64,000 bases of DNA, taken from IMG/VR virus record IMGVR_UViG_3300026521_000471, positions 122,518 through 186,517 of that record, one strand, 5' to 3'. Below, one piece after another: positions 19,737 through 61,119 of this stretch; position 1 is the first letter of the stretch; each line of letters starts with the position of its first letter. The stretch is from a virus. Below the pieces are notes generated by a model that was given only the letters and a program-made list of their open reading frames with translations, was not told the origin of the DNA and searched no databases. Both the position numbers and the translations under genes were made by a program.

Positions 19737-19762
19737 AATATAAAAGGATTAAGGACAAATTC

Positions 19763-40314: not shown

Positions 40315-40517
40315 TGATAACTGAAATTATAAGATTTAACTGTCATGTATTAAAGGTAAATAAATATAACAAAATAACTCCTGATGAATTGTTATTAGAA
40401 TATAAAACTCGTAACAACCTTATTTTAGAAAATACGGAAGTATATGTTGAAAGCTGTAAATGGGCTGCTGGAAGTACTAGTACTATTATAACAAAAGTGA
40501 AAAGGATAGAAAAATGA
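40314..40517 (+). CDS. hypothetical small protein
   Basis: ORF track. Confidence 0.35.
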   Translation: MITEIIRFNCHVLKVNKYNKITPDELLLEYKTRNNLILENTEVYVESCKWAAGSTSTIITKVKRIEK

Positions 40518-40963
40518 CTTATGCTCAAAATAAAAAGGCTAGATTTAATTATGAAATCATAGAAATATTTGAAGCAGGGATTGTACTAACAGGTGGTGAA
40601 GTAAAATCTGTAAGAGATAGTACAATTTCTCTTAAAGAAAGCTATGTTAAAATAAAAAATAATGAATTATTTTTAACTCAAGCTCATGTTTCAGTCCCTA
40701 CATACATACCATCATATGCAGTATTTGATGAAGTCCAAGATAGAAAATTGTTAATGCATAAAAGAGAGATTTTAAAACTTAAAAATAAATTGAAAGAACA
40801 GGGTTTGACTTTAATTGTATTATCAATTTATCAACGTGAAGGCACAAAAAAGATAAAAGTACAGTTGGCATTAGCTAGAGGTAAAAAATTATATAATAAA
40901 AAACAAACTATCAAAGAACGTGATATTAAACGAGATATGGAAAGAACATTAAAAAAATTCTAA
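40514..40963 (+). CDS. smpB: SsrA-binding protein SmpB
   Basis: KKARFNYEIIEIFEAGIVLTGGEVKSVR...LLMHKREILKLKNKLKEQGLTLIVLSIYQREGT.KIKVQLALARGKKLYNKKQTIKERDIKRD aligns along its full length with bacterial SmpB. Confidence 0.85.
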   Translation: MTYAQNKKARFNYEIIEIFEAGIVLTGGEVKSVRDSTISLKESYVKIKNNELFLTQAHVSVPTYIPSYAVFDEVQDRKLLMHKREILKLKNKLKEQGLTLIVLSIYQREGTKKIKVQLALARGKKLYNKKQTIKERDIKRDMERTLKKF

Positions 40964-41003: not shown

Positions 41004-41297
41004 ATGGCAAGAAAGAAAAAGATTCAAGAAGAAGTAGAAGTACCAGTTGTTGAAGTAACTGATGAAGAGATTCAAGAAGAAGTAGAAGTAGAAGTAGAAG
41101 TACCAGTTGTTGAAGTAACTGATGAAGAGATTCAAGAAGAAGTAACTGATGATTTTGATAATATTGCAATTACTGATTATGCTATGGTATCAAATGAATT
41201 AGCAAAAAAAATACTTGAGAAAAAAGGTAAAAAAGTATTATTTGAAGAGCCAGAAGACGTTCAATCTAGCTTTCATATGAAACCATTAAAAAAATAA
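41004..41297 (+). CDS. acidic repeat-containing protein
   Basis: ORF track; contains tandem EEVEVPVVEVTDEEIQEEV repeats. Confidence 0.45.
   Translation: MARKKKIQEEVEVPVVEVTDEEIQEEVEVEVEVPVVEVTDEEIQEEVTDDFDNIAITDYAMVSNELAKKILEKKGKKVLFEEPEDVQSSFHMKPLKK
41021..41152. repeat. tandem direct repeat (~48-60 nt unit, 2.5 copies) within the coding sequence
   Basis: GATTCAAGAAGAAGTAGAAGTACCAGTTGTTGAAGTAACTGATGAAGA is repeated with a 12-nt insertion. Confidence 0.7.
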
Positions 41298-43071: not shown

Positions 43072-44325
43072 ATGGCTATTTTACAGCTCCATTCTGATGA
43101 TCCAAATTTTGGATACATTATCAAAAAAAACCCAAATTCATCTATGCAAATAAGAAGTATACGTAAAGGTACTGCTTTTACATGGTATTCTCATAATGGT
43201 ACCGACTTTAATATTTATTTTAAAGATGCTGATAATGATGTATCGTTTGGATCGCAAGAATTCGATTATCTAAATATTTCTAAATATAATTCACCGATGT
43301 TTATTATCAATGCAATAAGTGAGTTTTTTTCAAGTACTGTTAGAGAAGAATCAGAATTAGATATAAAAAGTTCAAAATATTTTTATATTAACTTACTTGA
43401 AATCAAAAGAATAAAACAATTAATGGATTTTAAGAAATATTTCCCTGATTTTGAAATTGAAATTACCGAACAAGTTGGGAAAAATTATACTATTAAAGTA
43501 ATAACTGAAAATAGTTGGTTTATGTTATTAAATTATATTAATCTTATGATGATTTTTATTGCATTATCAAGTAACGACTACGTACATTTAGATAGTTCAA
43601 ATATTGAAAAATATCTAAATGCTATGAATCGATTGGATGCACCATTTTTTATACGTTATTTAGTAAGTAGAAATCTTATTAAAAGTAAAAACCAATTTAA
43701 AAAATATAAACAATTACTTGAAAAATCAAAAAGATATAATATCAATATGGCATATGGTAATACGGCTATGCAACGGAAAGACAAAATAGAACGTTTATTA
43801 TCATTTGATAAATCGATTCTTGATATTGGGTGTGGAGAAGGTTTTTATGCTATAGATTTTTCTAAAAAAATAGAAAAATATTCTTATAATGCCATTGACA
43901 TTAATCCTAATCTATTAGAGTCGATCAAGATAAAAGCTTCAAAAAAAGAAATTACAAATATTAATCTCTTTAATAGTCTAGAAGATTTTATAAAGATTTA
44001 CAATGATGAGTTAGTAGATATAATACTAACTGAAGTTATTGAACACATGCCAAAAGATGAATCAAAAAGATTAATAGAGACAGTATTGATGTCTATTAAT
44101 TTTAATACATTCATTATTACCGTACCAAATAAAGACTTTAATATTTTTTATGAATTAGGTGATGAAATGAGACATGATGATCATGACTGGGAACCTACAT
44201 TTGATGAATTTAAAAATTTTATAGCTAATTTTAATAATGATGGTTTATCTTTTGAATTTATAGAAATAGGTGATACTATCGATGGTATCTCTACAAGTAT
44301 CGGTTGTATAATTAAAAAGGTATAA
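43072..44325 (+). CDS. hen1: Hen1-like RNA 3'-terminal 2'-O-methyltransferase (bacterial Hen1 architecture: N-terminal domain plus C-terminal Mg-dependent methyltransferase)
   Basis: C-terminal domain: ILDIGCGEGFYAIDF (SAM motif I), LTEVIEHMPKDE (the Hen1 EVIEH metal motif), MRHDDHDWEPTFDEF (Hen1 HxDHxFEWTxxEF). The ~240-aa N-domain is consistent with the ligase-activating domain. Confidence 0.8.
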   Translation: MAILQLHSDDPNFGYIIKKNPNSSMQIRSIRKGTAFTWYSHNGTDFNIYFKDADNDVSFGSQEFDYLNISKYNSPMFIINAISEFFSSTVREESELDIKSSKYFYINLLEIKRIKQLMDFKKYFPDFEIEITEQVGKNYTIKVITENSWFMLLNYINLMMIFIALSSNDYVHLDSSNIEKYLNAMNRLDAPFFIRYLVSRNLIKSKNQFKKYKQLLEKSKRYNINMAYGNTAMQRKDKIERLLSFDKSILDIGCGEGFYAIDFSKKIEKYSYNAIDINPNLLESIKIKASKKEITNINLFNSLEDFIKIYNDELVDIILTEVIEHMPKDESKRLIETVLMSINFNTFIITVPNKDFNIFYELGDEMRHDDHDWEPTFDEFKNFIANFNNDGLSFEFIEIGDTIDGISTSIGCIIKKV

Positions 44326-44327
44326 AA

Positions 44328-45212
44328 ATGCTATTAACATTTGGAGGATATGGTGGTGAATATTGCTGTGGTGAACTCAGTAAGCTTCATATTAACAATA
44401 TAAAAGAACTACTTAGACGTTTTGAATACGAAGATATTATTGGACATTTCGATACAATTTTTAGTAGTAGTGGATGGGAAAGACAATATTATGATTTTGA
44501 TGATATTGAACATATTTCTAGCTGTGCCATTGATGGTAGTATTTCTATTAATCCTAATGAACGCGAACATACAAAGTATGATTCTATTAATATTAGTGAT
44601 TTAACTATCAATATCAATGATGATGACTTTTTATCTGATGGTTGGTATATTTCATCAGCTTCCATAGAAAAAGGTATTTTTTTTGAAGCAGAAATTTTAG
44701 ATGATGTCAATGAATTTAATAAAGATTTACTGATCATAGATGCAAAAGATACAGATTATATTGGTACTGGAGACATTTTAGTTACTGATGTTTTTTACAA
44801 TAATAAAGTCCTCGAAATGAACTATGATGTTATGGATACATTCGGTAAAGGTTTCTATCAAAGTATTTTTCATGTTAAAGATAGGATACATTATGACGGA
44901 AAGGAAAAACTCCTAGACGATTTTAAAAACTCTTTTAATATTATTGAAATGGTTGGTATGGATCGTGAAGATATAATCTTTGAATATTTAGAATATGTAG
45001 AAGCTGCAAATAATAAGCATTTAATAAAAGATGATCGAATTATAGTTTGGGCTAGTCCATTCTTATATGAACATTTTGAAAAAGAAGATGTAGACCTTTT
45101 ATGGATGACTGAAAAGAATATTAAATTCGCATTGAAAAATGGTTTAAAAGATGAAATACCACCAAATATTTTTGAACGTATTATTATGAGGTTTCCAGAA
45201 TGGCTAATTTAG
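44328..45212 (+). CDS. hypothetical protein
   Basis: ORF track. Confidence 0.45.
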   Translation: MLLTFGGYGGEYCCGELSKLHINNIKELLRRFEYEDIIGHFDTIFSSSGWERQYYDFDDIEHISSCAIDGSISINPNEREHTKYDSINISDLTININDDDFLSDGWYISSASIEKGIFFEAEILDDVNEFNKDLLIIDAKDTDYIGTGDILVTDVFYNNKVLEMNYDVMDTFGKGFYQSIFHVKDRIHYDGKEKLLDDFKNSFNIIEMVGMDREDIIFEYLEYVEAANNKHLIKDDRIIVWASPFLYEHFEKEDVDLLWMTEKNIKFALKNGLKDEIPPNIFERIIMRFPEWLI

Positions 45213-45490
45213 TATATGGTATTACCATTGATAGAAAATTATTTCATGGCAAAATTATAAAATCCAGTTTGAAATCTATGATTTCTATTAAGACAGTTGA
45301 TAATAGAATTTTAAATTTTCCTAAGTCTCATAAATTATTTAAAACAAAAGAAGAACGAGATATAGAAATTTTTTTAAATAATAATAATTTAAGCATAGAT
45401 AAAGTTGCAGAGTTATATAATATTAACAAAAAAGAGGCAATTTTAGCTTACCAATCAGCTATTAAAAAATTTCCCGAAAAATTTATATAA
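45200..45490 (+). CDS. hypothetical protein
   Basis: ORF track. Confidence 0.35.
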   Translation: MANLVYGITIDRKLFHGKIIKSSLKSMISIKTVDNRILNFPKSHKLFKTKEERDIEIFLNNNNLSIDKVAELYNINKKEAILAYQSAIKKFPEKFI

Positions 45491-45499
45491 AGGATCATT

Positions 45500-46093
45500 G
45501 TGAATATTAAAAGCAATATAAAATCTAACATTAAAGGTAAATCCTTAATAAGAACAAAATCTTACATTATACCGACTACTGTAACATTTCTTATAGGTTG
45601 TTTTATATGGTTATTAGATGGTAGCTGGGGAGTATATTTAACATTTTTAATTATAGGTATCATTACCCACTTTATTTATGTAGGTATAAATGAACATTCA
45701 AGATATAATCATGATCTGCATTGGGATAATGAAGCCTATTATAATTGGTTTGCCATTGTTGGTTTACCAATGATATTAATTGGTATTTTTTACCCATTTG
45801 CTATATCCCCAGCAATCCACGACTATTATCATGCAGAACGAATTGATGAAGAAATACCTATCGACAAAAATATTTCTCTTATGTACAATGACTACCATAG
45901 TACATTTATATTAATGGTTGAAGGAGAAAAACAACCTCTTCTAATTGATAAAGGTGGTTCTAGCGATACTTACAATCGTATGAAAGCTAGCTATCTTGAT
46001 AAAAAAATAAAAGTAGTTAAAAAAAGATATAAATCTTGGACTGATGACGAAATTCAAACAGTTTATCAGTTAGATGGTTACACATTCAAATAA
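45500..46093 (+). CDS. hypothetical membrane protein
   Basis: ORF track; hydrophobic helices. Confidence 0.4.
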   Translation: MNIKSNIKSNIKGKSLIRTKSYIIPTTVTFLIGCFIWLLDGSWGVYLTFLIIGIITHFIYVGINEHSRYNHDLHWDNEAYYNWFAIVGLPMILIGIFYPFAISPAIHDYYHAERIDEEIPIDKNISLMYNDYHSTFILMVEGEKQPLLIDKGGSSDTYNRMKASYLDKKIKVVKKRYKSWTDDEIQTVYQLDGYTFK

Positions 46094-46102
46094 AGGATTT
46101 TT

Positions 46103-48793
46103 ATGAATAAAATTAAAACACAAGTACATACTATAATAATGCTTATTGGACCTAGTGGTTCTGGTAAAACAACATTCGCTAATGAAATTCTAATACCCAC
46201 ATTACAAGAATATAAAGGTAGTGGAAATGACAATTTAAAAACAAATATACAATATATTAGTTCTGATGATATTAGAAAAGATATTTTAGGATATAATTAT
46301 AGTAAAATAGATGAAATTATGACTGAAAGTTCAACACAAGCATTTGAAATATTATTTACAAAATTAAGAGCTGTTACTAGTTATCCAATCAATGCTGAAT
46401 TTGTTATTTTAGATACAACTGGATTAAGTGAAAAATTTAGAAATGATGTTTTAGATATAGCAAAAGATAATAATTATAATGTCGATATTATAGTTTTCGA
46501 TTATAAGAATATTGATGAATATCAGAAAAATTTTTCTGATGAAGTTTATCAACAACCTAGTACTAATGGCAAAATTATTTCTAAGCATATAAAAAGATTA
46601 AAAACAGAAACATTAAAAACATTAAAAAAAGGTGTATATAAAAATATTCATAAAATTAAAAATAAAGATTTTCTTTTAGAAGTTGAACAGGAGAATCCAT
46701 ATGATTTAACACCTACTATGTTAAAACCTCTTTATAGTGTAGATGTATGGGATTGGAAAAAATATACTGATAGAATATTAAATAGTACTTATGATTGGAT
46801 TACTATTGGTGATGTTCATGGATGTATTCATGAATTAAAACAATTACTTGAAAAATATGGTTTTATAATTGAAGACAATGAAATCATAGATACAAACAAA
46901 ACAAAAAATATAGGATTGATTTTTGCAGGTGATTTAATTGATAAGTCGTCAGAAGAAGATTTAACTGAAACTATAAGATTTATACATAAAAATATGATAA
47001 AATTTCAAGATCGTTTTCAATTAATATTAGGTAATCATGAAGAGATGGTCTGGAAATGGATAACAAATCATAAAGATTTAGAAATTACTCCAGAACGATT
47101 GGATCAGAAAAAAAGATACTATAATACAGCAATTTTACTAGAGAAAAATGAAGAGTTAAAATCTATGTTTTTAGATATTTTTCATAATATGAAAGGTTGG
47201 GTTAAATTTATAGGATTAAACAAAAGAAGTTTTGTAGTTACACATGCACCATGTGAGGTTAAATATCTCGAAAAAATGGATCGTATTTCATTAAAACGTC
47301 AATATAAATGCGCTAGTAGAAGTAAAAACAAAGATAAGACTAATGATGAACTAACACCATATTTAAAAGAAGAAGCAGTTAATAACCATCCAGTTCACAT
47401 ATTTGGTCATATGGGACAATCATCTGTTAGATCTTTTAAAAATAAAGTTTGTATTGATACAGGCTGTGTATATGGTGGAAGATTAACTGGATACAGTATA
47501 GGATACGGTAAACCATTTATTCAAAGTGTAAAATCATTATCTCCTAAGAGTGCAAGAAACGACTTTGGAAATAATCTATTTGAAGATATAGGTAAAGCTA
47601 TAAAAGAAGTATCTATTGAAGATTTAAATCCATACAACCAAAAAAGATTAGATTATATAGTAAAAAATGGCATAGGATACATAGGAGGTACAATTTCACC
47701 TTCAAATAAAAACATCGAAAAAAATTCACTAGAATCTTTAGATAGTGGACTTAATTATTTCAAAGATAAAGTAGATAGTGTAGTTCTACAACCTAAATAT
47801 ATGGGGTCTAGAGCACAACTGTATCTCTTTAAAGATAATATTGAAAAATGCTATGCTACAAGTAGAAATGGATATAAAATTAGAGAGGACTTAACTGATT
47901 TATTCTCATCTAAATTAATAGAATACAAGCATATTTTTGATATGTATAATGCTGATGAGATAATTATAGATGGTGAATTATTACCATGGGCTCTTTTAGG
48001 AAAAGGTTTGATAGAAACACATTTTAAAACTGCGGATATAGCTATCCAAACAGAAATCGACTTTCTGGATGATAATGGGTTTGATAAGGCTTTTTTAAGT
48101 TTAAAGGATGAATTTAATGAATCAGAATTTTTAAAAGATAAAAATATTTTAGCTAAAAAAGAATTAGCTAAAAAATATGGTCACAAATATCACTCTTATA
48201 AAGATTTAAAATTTGAAATTGATAGATTCATACCTTTAAGTAAACACAAAAAAGCTTGGAAAATTTTCAATAAACAAATAACCCTTTATGGAGATGATAC
48301 AAATACAGATTTTAAAGGTTTTAGATTATTAAAAGTAATATCAAATAACAATATAATCGATTTGGATCTAACCCCTAGCGAACACTTTAAACTATTAAAT
48401 TCAGATGATATTCATATTGTTGATTTCAATGATAAAGACTATTTAGTTAAAGCTGAAAGATGGTATGATGATTTAGTGAGTAATCAAAATATGGAAGGTT
48501 GTGTAATAAAACCGGAAGTAAAGTTATTAGAATCTTGGATTGCTCCATATTTAAAAGTAAGAAATGAAGAATATCTTTCTATCATTTATGGGTATGATTA
48601 TAAATTCCCTGTCAAATTTAATAGATTATTAAATCAAAAAAATATTTCTAAAAAATTAAGACTCTCTATATCAGAGTATAAATTAGGAGAAGAAATGCTT
48701 AAAGCTCCTATGGGTAGTAAAGAACAAATACAGATTATAGCCAATCTATTATTTGAAAATGAAAAAGAAGAAAGCGTCGATCCAAGATTATAA
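46103..48793 (+). CDS. pnkp: bacterial-type polynucleotide kinase-phosphatase-ligase (Pnkp): P-loop 5'-kinase, metallophosphatase, and adenylyltransferase/ligase domains
   Basis: IMLIGPSGSGKTTFAN (kinase P-loop). ITIGDVHGC, IFAGDLIDK and LGNHEE (calcineurin-like phosphatase). C-terminal ...VVLQPKYMGSRAQLY (nucleotidyltransferase KxxG motif I). At 896 aa with this domain order it matches Clostridium-type Pnkp. Confidence 0.85.
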   Translation: MNKIKTQVHTIIMLIGPSGSGKTTFANEILIPTLQEYKGSGNDNLKTNIQYISSDDIRKDILGYNYSKIDEIMTESSTQAFEILFTKLRAVTSYPINAEFVILDTTGLSEKFRNDVLDIAKDNNYNVDIIVFDYKNIDEYQKNFSDEVYQQPSTNGKIISKHIKRLKTETLKTLKKGVYKNIHKIKNKDFLLEVEQENPYDLTPTMLKPLYSVDVWDWKKYTDRILNSTYDWITIGDVHGCIHELKQLLEKYGFIIEDNEIIDTNKTKNIGLIFAGDLIDKSSEEDLTETIRFIHKNMIKFQDRFQLILGNHEEMVWKWITNHKDLEITPERLDQKKRYYNTAILLEKNEELKSMFLDIFHNMKGWVKFIGLNKRSFVVTHAPCEVKYLEKMDRISLKRQYKCASRSKNKDKTNDELTPYLKEEAVNNHPVHIFGHMGQSSVRSFKNKVCIDTGCVYGGRLTGYSIGYGKPFIQSVKSLSPKSARNDFGNNLFEDIGKAIKEVSIEDLNPYNQKRLDYIVKNGIGYIGGTISPSNKNIEKNSLESLDSGLNYFKDKVDSVVLQPKYMGSRAQLYLFKDNIEKCYATSRNGYKIREDLTDLFSSKLIEYKHIFDMYNADEIIIDGELLPWALLGKGLIETHFKTADIAIQTEIDFLDDNGFDKAFLSLKDEFNESEFLKDKNILAKKELAKKYGHKYHSYKDLKFEIDRFIPLSKHKKAWKIFNKQITLYGDDTNTDFKGFRLLKVISNNNIIDLDLTPSEHFKLLNSDDIHIVDFNDKDYLVKAERWYDDLVSNQNMEGCVIKPEVKLLESWIAPYLKVRNEEYLSIIYGYDYKFPVKFNRLLNQKNISKKLRLSISEYKLGEEMLKAPMGSKEQIQIIANLLFENEKEESVDPRL

Positions 48794-49912: not shown

Positions 49913-50551
49913 ATGAAAAAAATACTTATAGTAGTAGACTACCAATTTGACTTTGCTAGCCCAACAGGGGCTCTATCAGTACCCAATGCTGATAAAATAG
50001 TTGATAACATCCAATCTTATATCAATGATAAATCGTATGAAAATATAATTTATACTTTTGATACTCATACATCTGATAAATATAATGGTTCTGATGAATC
50101 TAAAATTTTTCCTTCAATTCATTGTGAATTTGGAACAATCGGTTGGAATTTTTATAAAATTAAACCCAGATATAAAAATTGGGATAATTTTATTGCAAAT
50201 CGTGGAATCGATGAAGGTACAGTACCTTTTAACACCTTTATAGTTGAATCGGAAATGTTTTTTACAAAAGATGTTTTTGATATTTGGCAAGGAAATTCAA
50301 TCTTTAAATCTATTTTTACAAATACCTTTAAACCAAAGGACACAATTATAGACATTGTAGGTGTAGCTACAAATTACTGCGTATTTATGAATGTTATGGG
50401 TCTAGTAAAAAATGGTTATACAGTTAATGTTCTTTCAGATGCTGTTGAAGGGATTAAATCATTTCCAGATGGATCAATAGATGATAGTTTTCAAACAAAT
50501 ATCAATGTTATGAAAAATAAAGGTGTAACTTTTTCTGGAGACATAAAATGA
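49913..50551 (+). CDS. pncA: nicotinamidase PncA (isochorismatase/cysteine-hydrolase family)
   Basis: ILIVVDYQFDF (VDxQxDF), catalytic-triad context, and ...VGVATNYCVFMN (nucleophile Cys). Confidence 0.75.
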   Translation: MKKILIVVDYQFDFASPTGALSVPNADKIVDNIQSYINDKSYENIIYTFDTHTSDKYNGSDESKIFPSIHCEFGTIGWNFYKIKPRYKNWDNFIANRGIDEGTVPFNTFIVESEMFFTKDVFDIWQGNSIFKSIFTNTFKPKDTIIDIVGVATNYCVFMNVMGLVKNGYTVNVLSDAVEGIKSFPDGSIDDSFQTNINVMKNKGVTFSGDIK

Positions 50552-51444
50552 TTATGAAAGTAATAGAAAGTTCAGAAGAGAATGTTTGGAAATATATTTT
50601 TAATGATAATGAAATAGTTTTGGAAAGTGTATTATATAAATACGGTTCATTCGATAAAAGAACTGTTATTTGTTGTTCTGTACAAAGTGGTTGTCCGGTT
50701 GGATGTACATTTTGTGGAACAGGTGCAAATTTCTTAAAAAATATTTCATCAGATCAAATAGTTGAGCAAATAACAACTATTTTTAAAGATAAAAATATCG
50801 AGGATATAAACAGTAGATGTGAAAAGCTTCAAATAATGTTTATGAGTATGGGTGAACCATTTCTTAATTACAAAAATGTTAAAGAAGCAATAATTAAATT
50901 GAATAAATTATACCCTAATGCCGACTTATTAATATCTACTGTTGGTATTAATGATGATAAAATTTTTAAAGATTTTATTTCATTATCTAAAATGATTAAA
51001 AAAGTTGGTTTACAATTTAGTATTCATAAATCAAATGATACAGATAGAGATAAATTAATACCCTTTAAAAAGAAATATACACTTAGGGAAATCAGAGATA
51101 GAGGTACTATTTGGCATAAAGAAACAGGGAGACAAGTATATCTCAACTACTGTGTTGATGGTACAAATAATAGTCAAAATGATATTGAGAATCTTAAGAA
51201 TCTCTTTTCTCCAATTATTTTTAATATGACATTTAGTGTTATTTGTGAAGCAGATGAAACAATGAAAGATAGTTCATGTAGAAATTTGAATACGATTAGA
51301 GATTTTGAAAAATCTTTTATTGAAGAAGGGTATAATACCAGAATATTTGATCCTGCTGGACAGGACGATATTGGTGGAGGATGTGGCCAATTATGGTTCG
51401 TTCAAGATTATCTTAAAAATAAAAAAATGAAAGCAGAGGTATAA
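50548..51444 (+). CDS. radical-SAM RNA methyltransferase of the RlmN/Cfr family, lacking the N-terminal domain
   Basis: CCSVQSGCPVGCTFCGTG (CxxxCxxC), FMSMGEPFLN, and C-terminal GQDDIGGGCGQLWF (the second catalytic Cys motif DIDAACGQL of RlmN). Confidence 0.8.
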   Translation: MIMKVIESSEENVWKYIFNDNEIVLESVLYKYGSFDKRTVICCSVQSGCPVGCTFCGTGANFLKNISSDQIVEQITTIFKDKNIEDINSRCEKLQIMFMSMGEPFLNYKNVKEAIIKLNKLYPNADLLISTVGINDDKIFKDFISLSKMIKKVGLQFSIHKSNDTDRDKLIPFKKKYTLREIRDRGTIWHKETGRQVYLNYCVDGTNNSQNDIENLKNLFSPIIFNMTFSVICEADETMKDSSCRNLNTIRDFEKSFIEEGYNTRIFDPAGQDDIGGGCGQLWFVQDYLKNKKMKAEV

Positions 51445-51448
51445 AATT

Positions 51449-52402
51449 ATGGAAAAAATAGAAACACTAACCGATATGGTAGAAGTAATCAGAGAAATAA
51501 AAACACCGACAAGTCAAAAAGCTAATATGGTTGTAGGAAATATTAGAGCACAAATTAAAAATTACGTACAACGTAATAATCTTAAATCACTTGTAGTAGG
51601 TGTGAGTGGGGGTCTTGATTCAGCTGTTGTAGCGGCTCTTTGTCAAGAAGAATTTACAGGAGTACCTCTAATTGGTCTTTCTATTCCTATGAGTTCAACT
51701 AACGCTCACAAAGAACAGGCAGAATGGGTAGGTAATACCTTTTGTACGGCTTTTGAAGAATTCAACTATTGGGATGAAACTTTTCAGTACAATGAAGAAG
51801 AAGGTACTGATATGATGAGTGAAGTATTTAATACCGTTTCAGCAACAGATAAAGTTGCTGAAAAAGCAGGATTTAAAACGGAAGATTTTCCAAAAAATGT
51901 TCTTCAAGGTAATATTAAAGCGAGGCTTAGAATGATAACTCTTTATGACCTTGCAAGAAAAACAAACGGTATGGTTCTTTCAACAGATAACCTTTCTGAA
52001 TTTCAAATGGGATTTTGGACTATTTGTGGTGATGTAGGTGATTTTGGACCTATCCAAAATGTTGGTAAGGGGTTTGAGCTTCCAGCCATAGCAAGAGCTC
52101 TTGGAATAAGAGCAGATATTATCACTCAATCGCCTAGTGATGGACTAATGGTAACTGAAGAAAATACAGATGAGGCTCAACTTGGAGCTAATTATGAGGA
52201 AGTTGATACTATTATGAGTATTTATCTTGGCAATATCAATAAACCAAAAGAAATTATAGATAAACTTAAAAGTAACCTATTTAATATTATTAATGATAAA
52301 AAGAGTGCTAAGAAAATTTCAAATGTAATTACACGTTATGAAAATTCACACTTTAAACGTAATGGTACAATCAACCTTACAAGAGAACAGATCGGAATCT
52401 AA
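51449..52402 (+). CDS. nadE: NH3-dependent NAD+ synthetase NadE
   Basis: LVVGVSGGLDSAVVAALC (PP-loop), KARLRMITLYDLAR, VLSTDNLSEFQMGFWTICGDVGDFGPIQ and QSPSDGL...LGANYEEVD all align with E. coli NadE. Its length and motifs do not fit QueC. Confidence 0.8.
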   Translation: MEKIETLTDMVEVIREIKTPTSQKANMVVGNIRAQIKNYVQRNNLKSLVVGVSGGLDSAVVAALCQEEFTGVPLIGLSIPMSSTNAHKEQAEWVGNTFCTAFEEFNYWDETFQYNEEEGTDMMSEVFNTVSATDKVAEKAGFKTEDFPKNVLQGNIKARLRMITLYDLARKTNGMVLSTDNLSEFQMGFWTICGDVGDFGPIQNVGKGFELPAIARALGIRADIITQSPSDGLMVTEENTDEAQLGANYEEVDTIMSIYLGNINKPKEIIDKLKSNLFNIINDKKSAKKISNVITRYENSHFKRNGTINLTREQIGI

Positions 52403-52427
52403 ATTCCGATCAAAAAAAAGGATATTT

Positions 52428-52772
52428 ATGGTTTACCGTTCTAAAGCTGATTTAGAGGAAATTAGAAAGTCACAAAATAATATTAAATTATATGCTGTAT
52501 ATTCACATCTTGCATTACCCGTATTTAAAATCAAATCATTAAGTAAAAAATATGTATATTGGGAAGATAATTCAAAACATCCATATCCTAGTAATTCAGC
52601 AGGTTATATATTAACAGACAATTTATATGAAGGTTGGAAAATATATAAAGATACTTATAATAAACGGAAAAAATTTATTGAAGACCAATATAAATCAGAA
52701 ATACAAAAATTAACAATGGCAGAATCTATACTAGATTCTCTTTCAAAATCAAATCCAGAACTTTTTATCTGA
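52428..52772 (+). CDS. hypothetical protein
   Basis: The ORF-track start at 52338 overlaps nadE. ATG 52428 follows AAAAGGA. Confidence 0.35.
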   Translation: MVYRSKADLEEIRKSQNNIKLYAVYSHLALPVFKIKSLSKKYVYWEDNSKHPYPSNSAGYILTDNLYEGWKIYKDTYNKRKKFIEDQYKSEIQKLTMAESILDSLSKSNPELFI

Positions 52773-53348: not shown

Positions 53349-54488
53349 ATGAAAAAAAGTATGAGAGAAGAATCTTTAGGAACTAGACTTAAAGGTTATG
53401 AAAGAGAGTTTGAATCAGTAATCGATCCAAAGGATTTTATTATTTGTAGAATTGATGGACATAAATTTAGCAAATATACAAAAGGTATGAAAAAACCATT
53501 TGATAAAATGTTGTCAAATACAATGGAGGAAACTACTAAAGACCTTGTTGAAAAATTTGGAGCCGTAACGGGCTATACGCAATCTGATGAAATTTCATTG
53601 GTTTTTGTCCCTCAATTCAAAGAAAGATTAATACCTATTGAAACCAAAGAATTATTTGTTCTTAATGATGAAGAAGCAACCTATAAAGTTTATGACAAAG
53701 AATACAACTTGCTAGGTTCATTAGATATTAGTTATGAAGATATGGATGATGAATATTTCAGTATTAACTTTTGGGTAGTTTCTGATACTAATGATGAAAT
53801 TATCGATCAATGTTCTTGGCAAAATAGAAACTCTAAAACTGAGGCTAAAGCATTAGAAACGCTTTTAAAGTATATCATTAAGAAAGTTGAAATAACAAAT
53901 GAGCAAATTTTTGGAGGAAGAGTTCAGAAATTAACTTCTTTGATTGCGGCATATACTACTATGCAGTTTAATAAACACTTTTCTAAATTTTTAGAAAAAA
54001 CATACGAAGATTATGAAGAAAAATTAGAAAAGGGCGAAATCGATACGAATAGTTTAGAGGCCATGAAATACCTTAAAACAATGGATGAAAAAGTAGGTAA
54101 TGCTTGGTTTGATGCTAGAGTTTATGGCGTATCATCTAAAGAAGAAGCATTTAACAGTATTATGTGGCGAATTCGTGATGCCGAGAAGAACTCTAGATCA
54201 ATGTTTGCACAGACATACTGCTCTCATAAATCGCTATTAGGAAAAAATGGTCTTGAACAGGTTGAATACTGTAAAGAAACTACTGGTAAAGATTGGGAAG
54301 AAGTTGAAGATAAATACAAATATGGCATTTTAGTTAAAAAAGAAAAATATCTTAAACCTATTTCTGAAGGGACTATGGATTATGCTCAAAATGATTTTGT
54401 AGAAAGATCCAGAATTATTAGTTGGGCTGAAAAAATTACTACTTTCTCTGGTGAAAAAGTTGAAATGGTTGTTAGGAAATATAAATGA
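53349..54488 (+). CDS. Thg1-like protein (tRNA-His guanylyltransferase family 3'-5' nucleotidyltransferase)
   Basis: FIICRIDGHKFSKYTKGMKKPFDKMLSNTMEETTKDLVEKFGAVTGYTQSDEISLVF aligns with Thg1 (VVVRLDGRNFHRF...GQSDEYSFVF), including both metal-binding carboxylate motifs. Confidence 0.8.
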   Translation: MKKSMREESLGTRLKGYEREFESVIDPKDFIICRIDGHKFSKYTKGMKKPFDKMLSNTMEETTKDLVEKFGAVTGYTQSDEISLVFVPQFKERLIPIETKELFVLNDEEATYKVYDKEYNLLGSLDISYEDMDDEYFSINFWVVSDTNDEIIDQCSWQNRNSKTEAKALETLLKYIIKKVEITNEQIFGGRVQKLTSLIAAYTTMQFNKHFSKFLEKTYEDYEEKLEKGEIDTNSLEAMKYLKTMDEKVGNAWFDARVYGVSSKEEAFNSIMWRIRDAEKNSRSMFAQTYCSHKSLLGKNGLEQVEYCKETTGKDWEEVEDKYKYGILVKKEKYLKPISEGTMDYAQNDFVERSRIISWAEKITTFSGEKVEMVVRKYK

Positions 54489-54759: not shown

Positions 54760-55188
54760 ATGAAACCTACGTCTATTGGAATTATTCCCTATCGGTTTTC
54801 TGAAAACGGGGTATCTATTCTTTTAATGCGGTCTTCTAAGAAAAATGATAGATTCGATTTTGTTAAAGGTAAGATAGAACCTTATGAAACTAGAGTAGAC
54901 TGTTGTTTACGAGAAGTTCAGGAAGAAATAGGTGTTTCACTTTCCAAAGAAGATTTAGACTTTTCTGTTAAGCAATACAATAAGAAGAAAAATATTGAAT
55001 TATTCTTTATTCATTGGGATAAATATTTGTATAAGCAATTTAAATTAGATGAACGAGAAGTTTTTGAACTAAAATGGTTTAATTTGAATGAAATACCTAC
55101 AATTTCTCAGAACCAACGTTTGATTATTACGAAAATAAATGAAAGATTTAACAAATTACATCAACTACTAAGGAGTAACTATGTTTGA
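54760..55188 (+). CDS. Nudix hydrolase
   Basis: Nudix box GKIEPYETRVDCCLREVQEEIGV. Confidence 0.6.
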   Translation: MKPTSIGIIPYRFSENGVSILLMRSSKKNDRFDFVKGKIEPYETRVDCCLREVQEEIGVSLSKEDLDFSVKQYNKKKNIELFFIHWDKYLYKQFKLDEREVFELKWFNLNEIPTISQNQRLIITKINERFNKLHQLLRSNYV

Positions 55189-55326: not shown

Positions 55327-55848
55327 ATGAACGCCTTGTTCTTAGATATTGATGGAGTTTTAAATAATTACCATCTTAAAGAACCATTTACTTTTCCAAA
55401 CGGTTATACACAGCAACCAGTTAAAGGCACTCAAAATAAATGGAATGGTTTAATGGGTATGGATTATGATAAAGTTAATTTATTAAATGAAATACTTGAA
55501 AGTAACGAGTGGAAAGTAATAATATCAAGCTCTTGGTATTATTCGGATAGTACTGTTAATGCGTTAAAACATTTTGGTTTTAAATATTCAGATAGAATTA
55601 TTGGTGGTACAAATAGAAAATCATATGGTAGAGGAAAACAAATCCTAGATGCTGTTGAAGATTTTAAAGTAACAGATTTTATTATTTTAGATGATGAACT
55701 ATTTGATATTACTGGAAACTCTGAATTTGTTAGTAATAATATGCGAGAAATATTTAGAGATAGAGTGTTTAAAACAAATCCATACATAGGTTTAACTGAA
55801 AAGACAGTCTCTAATATTTTAAAAAGATTAGACTATTTTATAATTTAA
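55327..55848 (+). CDS. HAD-like phosphatase
   Basis: LFLDIDGVLN (motif I) and FIILDDE (motif IV-like). Confidence 0.5.
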   Translation: MNALFLDIDGVLNNYHLKEPFTFPNGYTQQPVKGTQNKWNGLMGMDYDKVNLLNEILESNEWKVIISSSWYYSDSTVNALKHFGFKYSDRIIGGTNRKSYGRGKQILDAVEDFKVTDFIILDDELFDITGNSEFVSNNMREIFRDRVFKTNPYIGLTEKTVSNILKRLDYFII

Positions 55849-56145: not shown

Positions 56146-57297
56146 ATGCGAGTTGATAATATCTTAATAAAAACAGAGTATGGAGATATAGAAATCTCAG
56201 GAAGAGTAGATAGCGGTGAATTTATTCCAGATGATTTAGATATTTCAACGGAATTAGGTGAATTTTTAGGAAAATGGATTGAAGCTGGAAATTTATTTTT
56301 TTCAGATAATGAAATTGATATGGTCGGTCAAGATATTGATGATGATTTAATCGATGAATTAAAAAATTTCGTTACATTGAGTGATTTTTCAGATCCTATG
56401 AGAGCATTAGCTTTACATCAACATACAGGATACGATTTTACAAATATTGATGAAGATAGAAACCCATACACATTTACATCTGGAAGAGAAGAATATATGG
56501 TTTTGACCGATGATGAAGCTGATGAAATGGCTAAAGAACGGGTTGAAAATTTATTAGATGATGTAGGATTTGATGGATTTAGTGATTGGGCTAAAGATCA
56601 TGCATTAGATAATTTTATTGATACTGATTGGTTTGACGATGCAAAAATTGAAATGAGTATGAGCTATGCTGAAGATATTAAACACGAGGGTGCAAATTCG
56701 GATGAATACATTAATAGACTACATGAAGAAATGGTAGAATTAGGTGTTCTTTTTGAACCGGAATGGCCTGAAGAACCAGATGAATCAGATTATACCTATG
56801 AAAGAGAGGAATTTGATAGTTCAGATTTTTATGATAATGAACCAGTAGAAGATGATTATGAAACTGAAGAAGAATGGGAAGAAGCACATAGTAAATGGGA
56901 AGATGATTTATCAAATGCTGAAAAAGAATGGGAAGAAGAACAAGACCGTTTAGAAGAAGAAGCTCAAGAAGAATATGACGATGCGATTGAAGCTTGGGAA
57001 CGTGAAAAAGAAGAATATGAATCAGATTTAGAAAATGATATAGATAATAATATTGAAGAGTTTGCTGAAAAACGTGTAGAAGATGAAGACGGCATCGAAT
57101 ATTGGAAAAATAATATTGGTGATATTTCCGATGTAGTAAAAGAACAAGGTTTATTAGACGAAGACGCTTTTATAGAATGGATTGTTGAAACTGATGGTAG
57201 AGGTACTAATATTGCAACTTATGATGAGGCGGAGTACGAAGAAACTGTAACCTTAAATGGTGAAACTGAAGATTTTTATATTTACAGAACCGAATAA
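56146..57297 (+). CDS. highly acidic (D/E-rich) hypothetical protein
   Basis: ORF track; low-complexity acidic C-terminal half. Confidence 0.45.
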   Translation: MRVDNILIKTEYGDIEISGRVDSGEFIPDDLDISTELGEFLGKWIEAGNLFFSDNEIDMVGQDIDDDLIDELKNFVTLSDFSDPMRALALHQHTGYDFTNIDEDRNPYTFTSGREEYMVLTDDEADEMAKERVENLLDDVGFDGFSDWAKDHALDNFIDTDWFDDAKIEMSMSYAEDIKHEGANSDEYINRLHEEMVELGVLFEPEWPEEPDESDYTYEREEFDSSDFYDNEPVEDDYETEEEWEEAHSKWEDDLSNAEKEWEEEQDRLEEEAQEEYDDAIEAWEREKEEYESDLENDIDNNIEEFAEKRVEDEDGIEYWKNNIGDISDVVKEQGLLDEDAFIEWIVETDGRGTNIATYDEAEYEETVTLNGETEDFYIYRTE

Positions 57298-57367: not shown

Positions 57368-58771
57368 ATGGCTTTATTAACTTACGATGAAGTATTAGAA
57401 ATCACAAAAATAAATGAAACTTTTAAAATGAAACACCAAAAAATAGGTAACACAGAAATTGCAATGTGTACTTATTTTTTAGCAAATGCAGGTGATTTTT
57501 TTGATGCAAAATTAGATGGCTCTATGGTTAGAGCCACAGAATTAAGAGGTATAACATTTGTAAAAGCTCCAAATTCAGACTGGAAAACATATTTGTTTAT
57601 CGATAAATTTTTTAATATCGGTCAAACAAATGGAACTAATATAACAAATATGGAACTTTCTATCAATGACTCAACTGAAATTTGTAATATTAATAAACTT
57701 TTTATCGATGAAAATGAGAAAACATATCGTGCAATAGATTTAAAGTTAAATATGATTGTTGCTGAATTTGATAGAAATACTGAAACTCATGGGGATTTTT
57801 TTCAAATTTTATCACTAGATAAAAAAGTTTTACCTACATTGAAACCTGAAAATTCTTGGATGTATGAGGATGTAAAAGATTTAGAAATTGTAAGAATTGC
57901 AAATAAAGAAGATGGATCCGCAATAAGATTTCTTTTAATTGAAGGAAAATTAGTGGCTAAAACAAAATTTTCTTTTGAATCAGAACAATGCAAATTAGCT
58001 ATGGAAATAGTTGAAAAAGATCCTAAACTTAAAGCATTTATTTTAACAACTTTAGAGTTTGGATATGCAGCAATTTTTGAAATAGTTTCACCATTTAATA
58101 AAATCGTTTTAACATATCCAGAAACATCTCTTAGATTGTTGCAACTAAGAGATGAAAATAATGATGGGTTATATCTAAATATATATGATAATACATTAGT
58201 AAAAGCATTTAATATCTTGACTGCCAATCAAGAACCTTTATACACACTTGATGAGTTACTTAAATTAAAAGAAACCGTTGAAGATAAAGAAGGTTGGGTA
58301 ATTACATTTGAAAATGGAAAAATGGCAAAGGTAAAAACTGATTGGTATATGTCACTTCATGGTATTTTAACTGATGGGTTAAAAGAACATAAAATAATTG
58401 AAAAGGTTTTAGACGAAACGATTGATGATACTATAGCAATGATACCAGAAGAAAATATTGAAGAACGAGATTTTATTGATGGTATCTCTGAAATTATAAT
58501 TAATCATGTAAATCATTTAGTGTCAGATGCAGAAGCTAAATTTAAAAATTCATGGAATGGAAATAAAAAAGAGTTAGCACTAAAATTTAAGGATGATAAA
58601 CGTGCTTTTCCATATATAATGAGTTTTGCAAATGGAAAAAATATTGAAGAAATTGAAAAACAAGTTATAGATAGAGTTAAATTTGAATGTAGACGTTTAG
58701 AAATGGCTAAACAATACCTTAAAAATTTAGGTTTTGACAAAGAACTCGAAATAAAAATTGAGGATGATTAA
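57368..58771 (+). CDS. rnl1: RNA ligase 1 (T4 Rnl1 / gene 63-like tRNA repair ligase)
   Basis: ELRGITFVKAPNSDWKTYLFIDKFFN, ANKEDGSAIRF (motif I KxDGS), EFGYAAIFEIVSPFNKIVLTYPE and KEGWVITFENGKMAKVKTDWYMSLHG align block by block with T4 Rnl1. Confidence 0.85.
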   Translation: MALLTYDEVLEITKINETFKMKHQKIGNTEIAMCTYFLANAGDFFDAKLDGSMVRATELRGITFVKAPNSDWKTYLFIDKFFNIGQTNGTNITNMELSINDSTEICNINKLFIDENEKTYRAIDLKLNMIVAEFDRNTETHGDFFQILSLDKKVLPTLKPENSWMYEDVKDLEIVRIANKEDGSAIRFLLIEGKLVAKTKFSFESEQCKLAMEIVEKDPKLKAFILTTLEFGYAAIFEIVSPFNKIVLTYPETSLRLLQLRDENNDGLYLNIYDNTLVKAFNILTANQEPLYTLDELLKLKETVEDKEGWVITFENGKMAKVKTDWYMSLHGILTDGLKEHKIIEKVLDETIDDTIAMIPEENIEERDFIDGISEIIINHVNHLVSDAEAKFKNSWNGNKKELALKFKDDKRAFPYIMSFANGKNIEEIEKQVIDRVKFECRRLEMAKQYLKNLGFDKELEIKIEDD

Positions 58772-58773
58772 TC

Positions 58774-58941
58774 ATGAAATACGGTTTTAGTTTATTTGAA
58801 TTAATTATTGTAGTTGTAATATTGGGAATTCTAGCAGCAGTTGCTATTCCTAGATTATCAAATTCTTCATCAAATAATGATAAAATTTCATACAAAAAAA
58901 TAATTTTTACTAATGGTGATGGTGGATCCGCCGAGAATTGA
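58774..58941 (+). CDS. short type IV pilin/pseudopilin-like ORF (55 aa): prepilin leader and N-terminal hydrophobic helix only
   Basis: MKYG|FSLFELIIVVVILGILAAVAIP is a canonical class III signal peptide with Glu at +5. The 3' end overlaps the tmRNA 3' terminus. Not in ORF track because it is under 60 aa. Confidence 0.35.
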   Translation: MKYGFSLFELIIVVVILGILAAVAIPRLSNSSSNNDKISYKKIIFTNGDGGSAEN

Positions 58942-59301
58942 ACTCGGGTCTGCCACTACTTCCATTTAAATCTCATTTACAAGTTTAGTTTGATTTTTAA
59001 TACTTTAATACTTAGATAACCAAACAAATCGGTATTAAAGGCACTTGATATAATTTTCGTCTAAAGGTATCAAGTTTAACTTTAGCTTATCTATTTTTTA
59101 TTATACACTCTGTATTTATTAGTAAATAGACAACTAATAAACTGAGTGATTCCGGGCTCCCAGAGGGAGGATTAAGCAGCTACTCTCGCAGTCTGTGGAA
59201 TATAAAGTTTTGTGTTTGCATTTAAGCTTTTTTGATGATTAAGTCATCACTCTACTTGCAATTTAAATTTCTTATAGCAACATCGATCCCAATTCGGACC
59301 C
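58920..59301 (-). ncRNA. ssrA: tmRNA (SsrA), 382 nt
   Basis: Minus-strand 5' end GGGUCCGAAUUGGGAUCGAUG resembles the tmRNA 5' end GGGGCUGAUUCUGGAUUCGAC. The 3' end is ...CCGAGUUCAAUUCUCGGCGGAUCCACCA (T-arm plus acceptor plus CCA). The acceptor stem pairs with a G3:U70 wobble (alanine identity). An internal tag ORF (59219..59172) reads GCA AAC ACA AAA CUU UAU AUU CCA CAG ACU GCG AGA GUA GCU GCU UAA, giving ANTKLYIPQTARVAA, followed by a CUCCC/GGGAG helix. Confidence 0.8.
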
Positions 59302-59619: not shown

Positions 59620-61119
59620 ATGGCAAAATTTAACCAAGGTACTAAAAGTATCCCAAATAGTAAAAATATGGCTGGAGGGGTATCATATGATCGCCCAATA
59701 AAAAAAGAGGTTGCGACTGTTGTTTTAAACTCTATGCTTAATGGTGATTCATATTATGAAAAAGAAGGTGAACGTTTAAAACGAATTGAAACTCTTATCA
59801 CTACATCAAAGTCTGATGCTGAGTTTGTAGCAAAAGCTATGGTGTTTACTAGAACAAATGGTCGTCTTAGAAGTATTTCACATTTCATGGCAAATATTTT
59901 AGCAGAAAATGTAAAAGGTAGTGACTTTTTACGTTCAGCATTAACAAAAGCTATTGTAAGACCGGATGATATGACAGAAATGTTATCACTTTGGGATACA
60001 AGAAATCCAAATAAAATGGTTCCGAATTCACTTAGAAGAGCCTTTAAGAAAGCTTTGGAAACTAAATTTGATGAATATCAATTTCGTAAATATGCTCAAC
60101 CAAAATCAAAAGTGAAACTAAAAGATGTCGTTAAACTAGCACATCCTTCACCTAAGAATTTTGATGATGAAACTATTTTTAAAAGAGTTATCGAAGATCA
60201 ATTAAAGGCTGTTGAAACAGCACAAACTATCAATGCATCTAAAACTGGTGAAGATCGAGTTGAAGCATATATGAAAGAAATTAAATCTGGTAAAATGGGT
60301 TATATGGCAGCATTAAAAAATATTAGAACATTGATGGAAAATAATATTTCAGAAGATGACTTAAAACAATGGTCTAATTTTATAACTGATCCTAAAAGGG
60401 TACAAAAATCAATGGTACTTCCATTTAGATTTGTTGATGCATGGAATGCTGTAAAAGATTTACCTATTAATGAATTTAAGAAAAATATTGTTAAGAAAGC
60501 ACTTGAGAGAGCTTTTGCCCTATCAGCTGGAAATACAAATATTGCTTCTGATGATGAAAAAGTGGCTATTTTACTTGATGAATCAGGTTCTATGGGCGGA
60601 TATTCAAATAATGACCGTAAAACACCATTTTATATTGGTAAAGTATTATCAGCTGCGATGAAAGTAGGTATGGATGATGATAAGTGTCTGTTTTATACTT
60701 GGGCAGATACATGTACAAGAAGAGATATAAAAGGTTTGTCATCTTTTGATTTTATCAATAATTTAAATACTAGAGGTGGAGGTACTGATGTATCAGCTCC
60801 TTTAAAAGAGTTAATTAAAACAAAAACATTTGTTGATAAAATTATAATCTTTAGTGATATGCAGATGTATGGTGGATGGGGAAATATTGGAGATCAACTC
60901 AAAAATTATTTAAAAACATATCGTAAAGAAGTCAATCCAAATGTAAAAGTATTATTTTGGAATTTAGAAGGATATGGTGGTGGTTCACCATTAGATATTG
61001 AAAAAACATCTGATATTTTTGAAGTAGCTGGTTTTTCAGATAGCATGCTTCAAATTATACCTAAATTATGGAGTGATAAAGATTTTTTAATTAAAGAGAT
61101 TGAAGCTATATCACTTTAA
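59620..61119 (+). CDS. rsr: Ro60-related protein (Rsr): TROVE domain plus vWA domain
   Basis: N-terminal NMAGGVSYDRPIKKEVATVVLNSMLNGDSYYEKEGERL (TROVE), KLKDVVKLAHPSP (the Ro60 RLSHLKP region), vWA MIDAS VAILLDESGSMGG and TRGGGTD, IIFSDMQ, and C-terminal VAGFSDSMLQII (Ro60 CGFDTGALDVI). Confidence 0.8.
   Translation: MAKFNQGTKSIPNSKNMAGGVSYDRPIKKEVATVVLNSMLNGDSYYEKEGERLKRIETLITTSKSDAEFVAKAMVFTRTNGRLRSISHFMANILAENVKGSDFLRSALTKAIVRPDDMTEMLSLWDTRNPNKMVPNSLRRAFKKALETKFDEYQFRKYAQPKSKVKLKDVVKLAHPSPKNFDDETIFKRVIEDQLKAVETAQTINASKTGEDRVEAYMKEIKSGKMGYMAALKNIRTLMENNISEDDLKQWSNFITDPKRVQKSMVLPFRFVDAWNAVKDLPINEFKKNIVKKALERAFALSAGNTNIASDDEKVAILLDESGSMGGYSNNDRKTPFYIGKVLSAAMKVGMDDDKCLFYTWADTCTRRDIKGLSSFDFINNLNTRGGGTDVSAPLKELIKTKTFVDKIIIFSDMQMYGGWGNIGDQLKNYLKTYRKEVNPNVKVLFWNLEGYGGGSPLDIEKTSDIFEVAGFSDSMLQIIPKLWSDKDFLIKEIEAISL

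Follow-up and report, generated by a model that had tools for sequence, protein, structure and literature searches.

Among known RNA repair pathways, that of Hen1 and Pnkp is, to our knowledge, alone in also shielding the mended site from re-cleavage. The classical pair, as found in Clostridium thermocellum and Anabaena variabilis, is described in a figure legend as adjacent, co-oriented Hen1 and Pnkp open reading frames (ORFs) (PMC3675462). A second solved system, the Pnkp1-Rnl-Hen1 heterohexamer of Capnocytophaga gingivalis (4XRP/4XRU; PMC4411300), keeps its ligase as a separate protein, its hen1 gene is unlinked from pnkp1-rnl, and its T4-like Pnkp1 carries a phosphatase from a different superfamily to that of the C. 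thermocellum enzyme (PMC4411300). The natural substrates of Hen1-Pnkp have never been identified (PMC4411300). Phage T4 uses Pnkp and Rnl1 to mend host tRNA-Lys cut by the anticodon nuclease PrrC; this pathway has no methylation step and the repaired tRNA can be cleaved again. RNA repair is a well reviewed counter-defence theme of jumbo phages, in a review that does not mention Hen1 (PMC7824862), and the presence of PNKP and Hen1 in phage XacN1 was already pointed out in 2018 and tied to tRNA repair (PMC5852040). Here we describe a hen1-pnkp locus at 43072-48793 (+) of a 64,000-nucleotide stretch of viral DNA (hereafter the window), corresponding to positions 122,518 to 186,517 of IMG/VR record IMGVR_UViG_3300026521_000471. 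We consider it probable that these are five co-transcribed, translationally coupled genes forming an operon in a ~220-kb uncultivated myovirus-like phage, and that the first and last of them encode a complete Hen1-Pnkp repair machine.

The ORF listing of the window gives five closely packed ORFs, all on the + strand. The first, hen1 (43072-44325), encodes 417 residues and the last, pnkp (46103-48793), encodes 896. Between them lie orfA (44328-45212), coding for a 294-residue acidic ORFan protein, orfB (45200-45490), coding for a 96-residue basic ORFan protein, and orfC (45500-46093), coding for a 197-residue predicted membrane protein. This agrees with an earlier sequence-only reading of the locus, which had placed three genes of no known function between hen1 and pnkp. 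The junctions consist of a 2-nt gap, a 13-nt overlap (the orfB start codon overlaps the final 13 nt of orfA) and two identical TAAAGGAT junctions combining a stop codon with a ribosome-binding site; because of them, the five genes are predicted to share a single translationally coupled transcript. No terminator-like site was found on the + strand within 43072-48793, and a sigma-70 promoter scan was uninformative in DNA of 27% GC (74 sites vs 78 expected). Measured against the sibling contig L108, which is 94% identical, the ratio of non-synonymous to synonymous substitutions (dN/dS) is 0.088 for hen1 and 0.074 for pnkp, and given such strong purifying selection both genes are evidently maintained. 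The corresponding values for orfA (0.26), orfB (0.412) and orfC (0.146) show that these too are real genes under purifying selection, with looser constraint than the enzymes.

Profile searches and structure alignments confirm the proposal of the sequence-only reading that the locus pairs a Hen1 with a trifunctional Pnkp, ordered kinase-metallophosphatase-ligase. The Pnkp matches NCBIfam TIGR04075 (bacter_Pnkp, 6.5e-58) and Pfam PNKP_ligase (3.4e-31) and AAA_33 (3.6e-10), and Pfam Metallophos is on record for a protein identical to it. The domains follow one another as AAA_33 (residues 12-133), Metallophos/4J6O (residues 234-478) and PNKP_ligase/4XRU (residues 513-886). Aligned to the C. thermocellum kinase structure 4GP6, the kinase domain (residues 1 to ~195; 46103-46687, +) contains the P-loop GPSGSGKT (16-23) with K22 and T23, followed by SSDDIR (53-58), where D55 and R58 align to D38 and R41 of the C. 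thermocellum enzyme (CthPnkp). The binuclear metallophosphoesterase domain (residues ~229-480; 46787-47542, +), which was aligned residue by residue to 4J6O_A (3.9e-16), carries the motifs GDVHG (236-240), GDLIDK (276-281), GNHE (310-313), H381 and GH (435-436), and its metal and phosphate ligands are D237, H239, D277, N311, H312, H381, H436 and D452. The ligase (adenylyltransferase) domain (residues ~508-896; 47624-48790, +) has the KxxG motif that had been noted in the sequence, as K565-Y-M-G568, together with DGELLPW (623-629), EGCVIKP (798-804) and KVR (818-820); K565-YMG-SR aligns with K-HMGSR of CthPnkp and K-YMGSY of the C. gingivalis ligase (CgiRnl). The catalytic residues of kinase, phosphatase and ligase are invariant across a 26-sequence alignment of relatives.

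The partner protein, Hen1, matches Pfam Hen1_N (1.5e-64; residues 3-221) over 222 of 222 profile positions, so that the ligase-activating domain, whose role is documented (PMC3675462, PMC4411300), is complete. The C-terminal half, with a methyltransferase domain at residues ~245-410, matches S-adenosylmethionine (SAM)-methyltransferase domains of Pfam, including Methyltransf_25 (2.1e-10), and the protein also matches NCBIfam TIGR04074 (bacter_Hen1, 3.9e-18). Its motifs are DIGCGEG (251-257) for SAM, EVIEH (321-325) and HDDHDWE (368-374). Two Hen1 motifs had been named from the sequence: EVIEH is present, while HxDHxFEW is recovered only partly, reading HDDHDWEP (H-x-D-H-x-W-E-P). The metal ligands (E-x-x-E-H ... 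H) are kept, with EVIEH and HDDH (368-371) aligning to both C. gingivalis and C. thermocellum Hen1 (CgiHen1, CthHen1), and the C-terminal domain is predicted to be a 3'-terminal ribose 2'-O-methyltransferase of the Mn-dependent type. As judged by alignment, all catalytic residues known for the kinase, phosphatase and ligase of CthPnkp, as well as the Hen1 metal site, are kept, the exception being R237K in the phosphatase.

The locus shares with the classical systems its domain order, the catalytic residues of four active sites apart from Arg237 of the phosphatase, a Hen1 N-terminal ligase-binding domain and, as would be expected from these, the heal-methylate-seal chemistry (PMC3675462). In such a cycle, the kinase domain of Pnkp would phosphorylate the 5'-OH and the metallophosphatase domain would remove the cyclic phosphate, Hen1 would place a 2'-O-methyl group on the 3'-terminal ribose, and the N-terminal domain of Hen1 would activate the Pnkp ligase to seal the break via a Lys565-AMP intermediate. 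The methylated junction would resist renewed cleavage by the same type of nuclease; for the phage, host anticodon-nuclease or ribotoxin defences would be undone and re-cutting prevented. As in T4, a phage would be mending host tRNA cut by an anticodon nuclease, although the phosphatase and ligase families differ. We only infer the enzymatic activity of the pair, its RNA substrate and its role in counter-defence, the last of which appears plausible. The RNA-repair and rescue genes of the neighbourhood (SmpB, transfer-messenger RNA (tmRNA), Ro60/TROVE, Rnl1, Thg1-like, HAD_SAK_2) match the counter-defence repertoire of jumbo phages (PMC7824862).

The Pnkp had been called Clostridium-type in the sequence-only reading. 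This stands for the domain order and the N-terminal half, since the kinase and phosphatase resemble the CthPnkp domains (4GP6, 4J6O), but not for the ligase and Hen1 sequences, which favour Capnocytophaga. The ligase domain matches CgiRnl (4XRU_B, residues 513-886) at full length with 3.5e-46, against 2.5e-16 for the CthPnkp ligase (3TY9), the latter being a 62-bit match that is mostly C-terminal with a second weak stretch near the lysine motif. Similarly, Hen1 matches CgiHen1 (4XRP_C) at full length with 4.3e-39, against 1.2e-11 for CthHen1 in the methyltransferase domain only. Whilst Capnocytophaga thus provides the best solved-structure match for both ligase and Hen1, its system differs from the window in other respects: the Rnl-like domain is here the C-terminal third of the 896-residue Pnkp rather than a separate protein, the phosphatase is a calcineurin-like metallophosphoesterase, and hen1 and pnkp are linked. 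No match to the T4-like Pnkp1 of Capnocytophaga was found for Pnkp in the PDB, even at E<=1. Relative to the classical cassette, the window differs by the Lys in place of Arg237, the weak ligase match and the three genes between hen1 and pnkp. The arrangement appears to be a hybrid, joining a Clostridium-like kinase-metallophosphatase half to a Capnocytophaga-like ligase and Hen1.

Among 5.8 billion proteins searched, an identical Pnkp was found on a 224-kb contig, and ~30 relatives with 53-63% identity came from contigs reaching 496 kb. There is also a large Bacillales family of 861 residues with ~40% full-length identity to the Pnkp, mostly annotated as 'metallophosphoesterase'. Bacillales relatives score ~180-196 bits on TIGR04075 (117-196 bits when the other phage relatives are included), and the ligase of a Paenibacillus member also favours CgiRnl (1.4e-58 vs 1e-15 for C. 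thermocellum). The Bacillales cassette (Paenibacillus, Brevibacillus, Bacillus, Cohnella and others) is like the window in its fused Pnkp order, upstream hen1, Rnl-like ligase and Lys for Arg237, with Pnkp 39-43% and Hen1 40-48% identical at full length; it is unlike the window in belonging to cellular genomes and in that hen1 abuts pnkp, with a gap of ~15-25 bp and without an insert. By these comparisons, the window belongs to a distinct, apparently uncharacterised subfamily common to Bacillales and huge phages. This hen1-then-pnkp subfamily was delineated in the present analysis, with the ligase motifs serving as scan patterns, and is not a curated family. The window has its features, namely a fused Pnkp, the ligase motifs LQPKYMGSR and YL..YGYD, an Rnl-like ligase, a Hen1 resembling CgiHen1 and hen1 upstream on the same strand; its Pnkp is 39-63% identical at full length to the members, and the insert is the sole difference. 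A full-text search of the available library found no paper on this subfamily. A neighbour-joining tree without support values, which can be indicative only, places the clade of the window next to that of Bacillales as its sister group, with viral and metagenomic lineages surrounding the two.

Gene order was compared over 187 fetched loci in which homologues were mapped by tblastn, 185 of them bearing pnkp. Directly upstream of pnkp, on the same strand and with a gap of ~15-25 bp, hen1 was found in all Bacillales genome loci (79/79). Overall, it lies directly upstream in 135/185 loci, including most viral contigs, and the exceptions are mostly truncated contigs. The sequence-only reading had held that the gene order differs from the bacterial operon in two ways, the upstream position of hen1 and the inserted ORFs. 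The first does not survive for the nearest bacterial relatives, because hen1 is directly upstream in every one of the Bacillales loci; only the insert is unusual. The one locus with hen1 downstream of pnkp (L167) was considered as a classical-type cassette and rejected (159 bits).

Phage-borne Pnkp and Hen1 are not new; what sets this locus apart is the insert, together with a fused hybrid architecture that no cultured phage displays. By tblastn, Hen1 was found in five deposited phages, with 29-31% full-length identity to that of the window. In cultured large phages, Hen1 adjoins a Pnkp-type ligase (Xanthomonas XacN1 ORF197-199; Stenotrophomonas RAS14/CM1; Vibrio RYC and sm033). However, in XacN1 and RAS14 the kinase stands alone and is followed by Hen1 and then by a protein with only a ligase, where the Pnkp of the window is fused, and in Vibrio RYC and sm033 a ligase is followed by a Hen1-PNK-HAD fusion, where the Hen1 of the window is separate. 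None of 50,697 deposited phage records contains a fused kinase-metallophosphatase-ligase (0/23 matches cover at least 80% of the Pnkp) or gives a megablast match to the 5.7-kb region, and orfA, orfB and orfC are in none of the cultured phages XacN1, RAS14/CM1, RYC and sm033. Related viral contigs in IMG/VR (up to 530 kb), none of which were returned by a single-protein scan, were found by an alignment-based scan. A fused Pnkp is encoded in 14 of 15, and in all of these 14 except L026 hen1 lies upstream of pnkp on the same strand.

A separate observation concerns the 'polynucleotide kinase' genes of Vibrio RYC (L002 6001-8154) and sm033 (L003 5998-8178), which encode Hen1-PNK-HAD_PNKP fusions of 717-726 residues. 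Preceded by a Rnl-type ligase, they amount to a Pnkp1-Rnl-Hen1-type system that is not so annotated in GenBank.

Only the closest clade, with Pnkp identity of at least 54%, has the insert, which comprises zero to four genes among relatives. The order orfA-orfB-orfC is shared by the window, L108, L007 and L113, whilst L112 has orfA and two tandem orfC copies, L116 two tandem orfC copies and others, L009 a 77-residue ORF and an orfB homologue, and L114 no insert at all. In phage lineages further removed, the hen1-pnkp gap often holds a single, unrelated small ORF. For the three proteins, neither Pfam, NCBIfam nor PHROGs returned a credible match, and no profile or fold search was informative as to function; sub-threshold matches to DUF447_C (0.0027) and to a 'minor head protein' PHROG (0.003) were not credible. 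Profile searches of 5.8 and 1.84 billion proteins found no insert proteins outside the close clade. The product of orfA (60 D+E vs 28 K+R; 8 clusters among the 5.8 billion proteins) is modelled, at a predicted local distance difference test score (pLDDT) of 78, with an N-terminal part rich in beta structure and, C-terminally, a helical domain ending in an invariant RFPEWLI tail. That of orfB ends in KFPEKFI and has only 8 representatives among 1.84 billion proteins, its family having five members in the fetched loci, including a 98-residue ORF of L009. The AlphaFold2 model of OrfC (pLDDT 85) has three long hydrophobic helices (residues 20-38, 43-74 and 83-111), followed by a small alpha/beta domain (residues 115-197); the sequence shows hydropathy peaks and a basic N-terminus. 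Its topology is ambiguous, as the N-terminus and the C-terminal domain are both Lys-rich. Twenty-one orfC clusters were found among 5.8 billion proteins, none with a Pfam domain, and the fetched loci contain 10 members in 8 loci, always directly upstream of pnkp.

The ends of OrfA and OrfB fit a C-terminal tail, (F/Y/N)PE-x-(F/L/W)-(I/V), that occurs on four ORFs of the window against 0.13 expected: orfA (45176-45212), orfB (45470-45490), 52338-52772 (+) and 62316-62606 (-). It also occurs in relatives (L007 17259-17735; L009 15313-15711 and 19504-19905 (-); L108 14621-14986), and was not found in the flanks of the more distant loci. Homology of orfA and orfB through this tail was not accepted, as hhalign aligned the last 29 columns only, at a probability of 24%, and the tail is taken as a motif. 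Its distribution points to a putative lineage-specific C-terminal module dispersed over the genome, which could serve in docking or DNA binding.

Alternatively, the five genes may form one unit in which orfA, orfB and especially orfC supply accessory subunits dedicated to localising, regulating or extending the Hen1-Pnkp complex, for example by membrane tethering of repair or by damage sensing. The genes are co-oriented and translationally coupled, all three insert genes are under purifying selection, and the insert is kept in clade members whose Pnkp is only ~58-65% identical. Moreover, wherever orfC occurs in the fetched loci it directly precedes pnkp, and the database relatives of orfC lie on contigs matching in size those with Pnkp relatives. 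However, within this clade L114 lacks the insert and L009 has a largely different one, and none of the Bacillales or more distant phage relatives has it. Profile and fold searches detected no RNA-related domain or fold in its proteins, and the repair-specificity of orfA and orfB is weakened because their tail also closes unrelated small ORFs in other parts of the genome. We therefore regard a single five-gene unit as unlikely. Rather than core subunits of the repair machine, the insert genes most likely encode accessory or hitch-hiking functions, and in our reading phages tolerate insertions at the hen1-pnkp intergenic site. Among the three, orfC, the gene most tightly tied to pnkp, is the strongest candidate for a genuine functional link. 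Were the insert, and above all orfC, a working part, the locus would encode an RNA repair machine of five components, associated with the membrane and restricted to a single huge-phage clade, within an unrecognised hybrid subfamily bridging two bacterial systems and with a possibly different phosphatase; in this full form the idea is doubtful.

Several points weigh against a complete Hen1-Pnkp machine on a phage. Firstly, both proteins score far under the curated equivalog cut-offs, with 196.6 bits against 750 for Pnkp (TIGR04075) and 65.2 against 340 for Hen1 (TIGR04074), a further respect in which the label Clostridium-type does not hold. Secondly, hen1 and pnkp, whilst co-oriented, are 1.78 kb apart with three ORFs between them and so are not the adjacent ORFs of the classical cassette, a separation that is atypical if stoichiometric co-expression matters. 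Thirdly, the 64-kb window contains no structural or packaging gene (capsid, terminase, tail), which leaves gene content and relatives as the basis of the phage call, and no host, cognate nuclease or phage tRNA gene was seen in it. Lastly, of the nine phosphatase residues given as essential in CthPnkp (D187, H189, D233, R237, N263, H264, H323, H376 and D392; PMC3675462), eight are kept here. The ninth, Arg237, is replaced by Lys281 (46937-46945, residues 279-281, in GDLIDK), which is invariant in 26 subfamily members from phages and Bacillales. In CthPnkp, R237K abolishes the phosphomonoesterase step and makes the cyclic phosphodiesterase step faster (PMC3675462); for this reason, complete 3'-end healing is not assured.

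This substitution raises the alternative that the phosphatase domain is a 2',3'-cyclic phosphodiesterase only, which would require a second phosphatase or a 2'-phosphate/3'-phosphate intermediate. Both the invariance of Lys281 at the position of Arg237 and the behaviour of the CthPnkp mutant (PMC3675462) speak for it, and a candidate second phosphatase, HAD_SAK_2, is encoded in the same island at 55327-55848. On the other hand, His312 and every metal ligand are intact, the effect of one residue may not carry over to a homologue of ~25-30% identity, and the Bacillales relatives share the Lys in an apparently self-sufficient two-gene cassette. On balance, this alternative is quite unlikely.

The surroundings of the operon are rich in genes of RNA metabolism. 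Upstream lies SmpB (40514-40963, +; Pfam 1.4e-48), at the same position in L007 and L009. Just downstream of pnkp are nicotinamidase/isochorismatase-like, radical-SAM and NadE genes (49913-52402, +), also kept in L007 and L009, which fit a phage nicotinamide adenine dinucleotide (NAD)-salvage theme linked to RNA repair and counter-defence; the neighbourhood of L009 adds ribosomal protein L33. These are followed, with Pfam assignments and on the + strand, by Thg1-like (53349-54488), Nudix (54760-55188), the 'Swiss-army-knife' phosphatase HAD_SAK_2 (55327-55848), T4-type Rnl1 (57368-58771) and Ro60/TROVE with a vWA domain (59620-61119). A 383-residue ORF with no assigned function (56146-57297) sits between HAD_SAK_2 and Rnl1. 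Between Rnl1 and Ro60, on the - strand, is a full-length tmRNA (58920-59301; Rfam 115.5 bits, and ARAGORN) with the tag peptide ANTKLYIPQTARVAA. Together with SmpB, it would form a complete trans-translation pair for ribosome rescue. No Y-RNA-like partner of Ro60 reached the Rfam gathering thresholds in the window.

With tmRNA, SmpB and Ro/TROVE encoded nearby, the pair might instead act on particular RNAs of the phage or host to process or protect them, through 3'-end 2'-O-methylation or maturation of the phage tmRNA or a Ro-associated RNA for instance, and have no anti-nuclease role. Eukaryotic HEN1 stabilises small RNAs through 3'-terminal methylation. The in vivo substrates of the bacterial pair are not identified (PMC4411300). 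However, methylation alone would not need the full kinase-phosphatase-ligase set that is kept here under strong constraint, and the Bacillales relatives carry the cassette without neighbouring tmRNA or Ro. An RNA-processing role is accordingly very unlikely, and repair of nuclease-cut RNA is preferred.

The phage-like character that the sequence-only reading had ascribed to the genome is borne out by gene content. The window has ~27% GC, nearly all genes on one strand and many ORFans. Several of its large ORFs match phage-only PHROG families (1e-36 to 1e-92), one ORF is ~41% identical to T4-like cyanomyovirus proteins, and the genes include a T5-type dNMPase, PhoH, DnaB, topoisomerase, UvsW_N, an NAD-dependent ligase and an Acb1-like 2H phosphoesterase, on a contig of ~220 kb. 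That the window comes from a bacterial chromosome or plasmid and its Hen1-Pnkp cassette is an ordinary cellular one, as might be argued from the lack of capsid, terminase and tail genes within it, from one related 6.9-kb scaffold binned as a Cloacimonadota metagenome-assembled genome and from the typically cellular tmRNA, SmpB, GroEL and GGDEF-EAL, is hardly credible given the PHROG-only families, the cyanomyovirus-like protein, the T5 dNMPase, Acb1, PhoH and UvsW_N, the dense one-strand genes, many ORFans and contigs of 221-224 kb, and given that tmRNA and SmpB are already known in huge phages (PMC7162821).

Because the phage setting supplies a clear selective rationale, in the form of anticodon-nuclease defences, it offers a tractable route to an in vivo substrate of Hen1-Pnkp. 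Moreover, many 'metallophosphoesterases' of Bacillales and huge phages belong to the hybrid subfamily, which forms an evolutionary link between the two solved systems. The practical gain is modest. It allows annotation to be corrected, and it singles out three ORFan families, including one with strict linkage to pnkp, as candidates for an accessory or anti-defence role.

Further features of the window were noted. The Acb1-like 2H phosphoesterase (2154-2675, +; Pfam Acb1 1e-33, with a weak 2_5_RNA_ligase2 match) could be a degrader of cyclic nucleotides acting against the cyclic-oligonucleotide-based antiphage signalling system (CBASS), or a 2',3'-cyclic phosphodiesterase feeding RNA repair. 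The ORF at 41004-41297 (+) contains a 60-bp tandem duplication (41026-41144; 2.0 copies, 98% match) encoding an acidic EEVEVPVVEVTDEEIQ repeat. It is 97 residues long in the window and 77 on the ENA contig L005, a difference of 20 residues (60 nt) or one repeat unit, and the copy number thus probably differs between assemblies. Two adjacent paralogues of ~440 residues (4151-5482 and 5495-6805, +) both match the phage-only phrog_10773 (8e-52 and 1.6e-36). On the - strand (19409-21920 and 22537-23946), a 98-residue PhoH fragment adjoins a 475-residue PIN-PhoH, and a ResIII/Helicase_C helicase with a faint intein-splicing match lies nearby; the PhoH/PIN-PhoH and ResIII/Helicase_C genes may be split or contain inteins. 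Lastly, a 725-residue GGDEF-EAL protein with a faint dCache_1 match (29334-31511, +) places cyclic-di-GMP signalling machinery on a phage.

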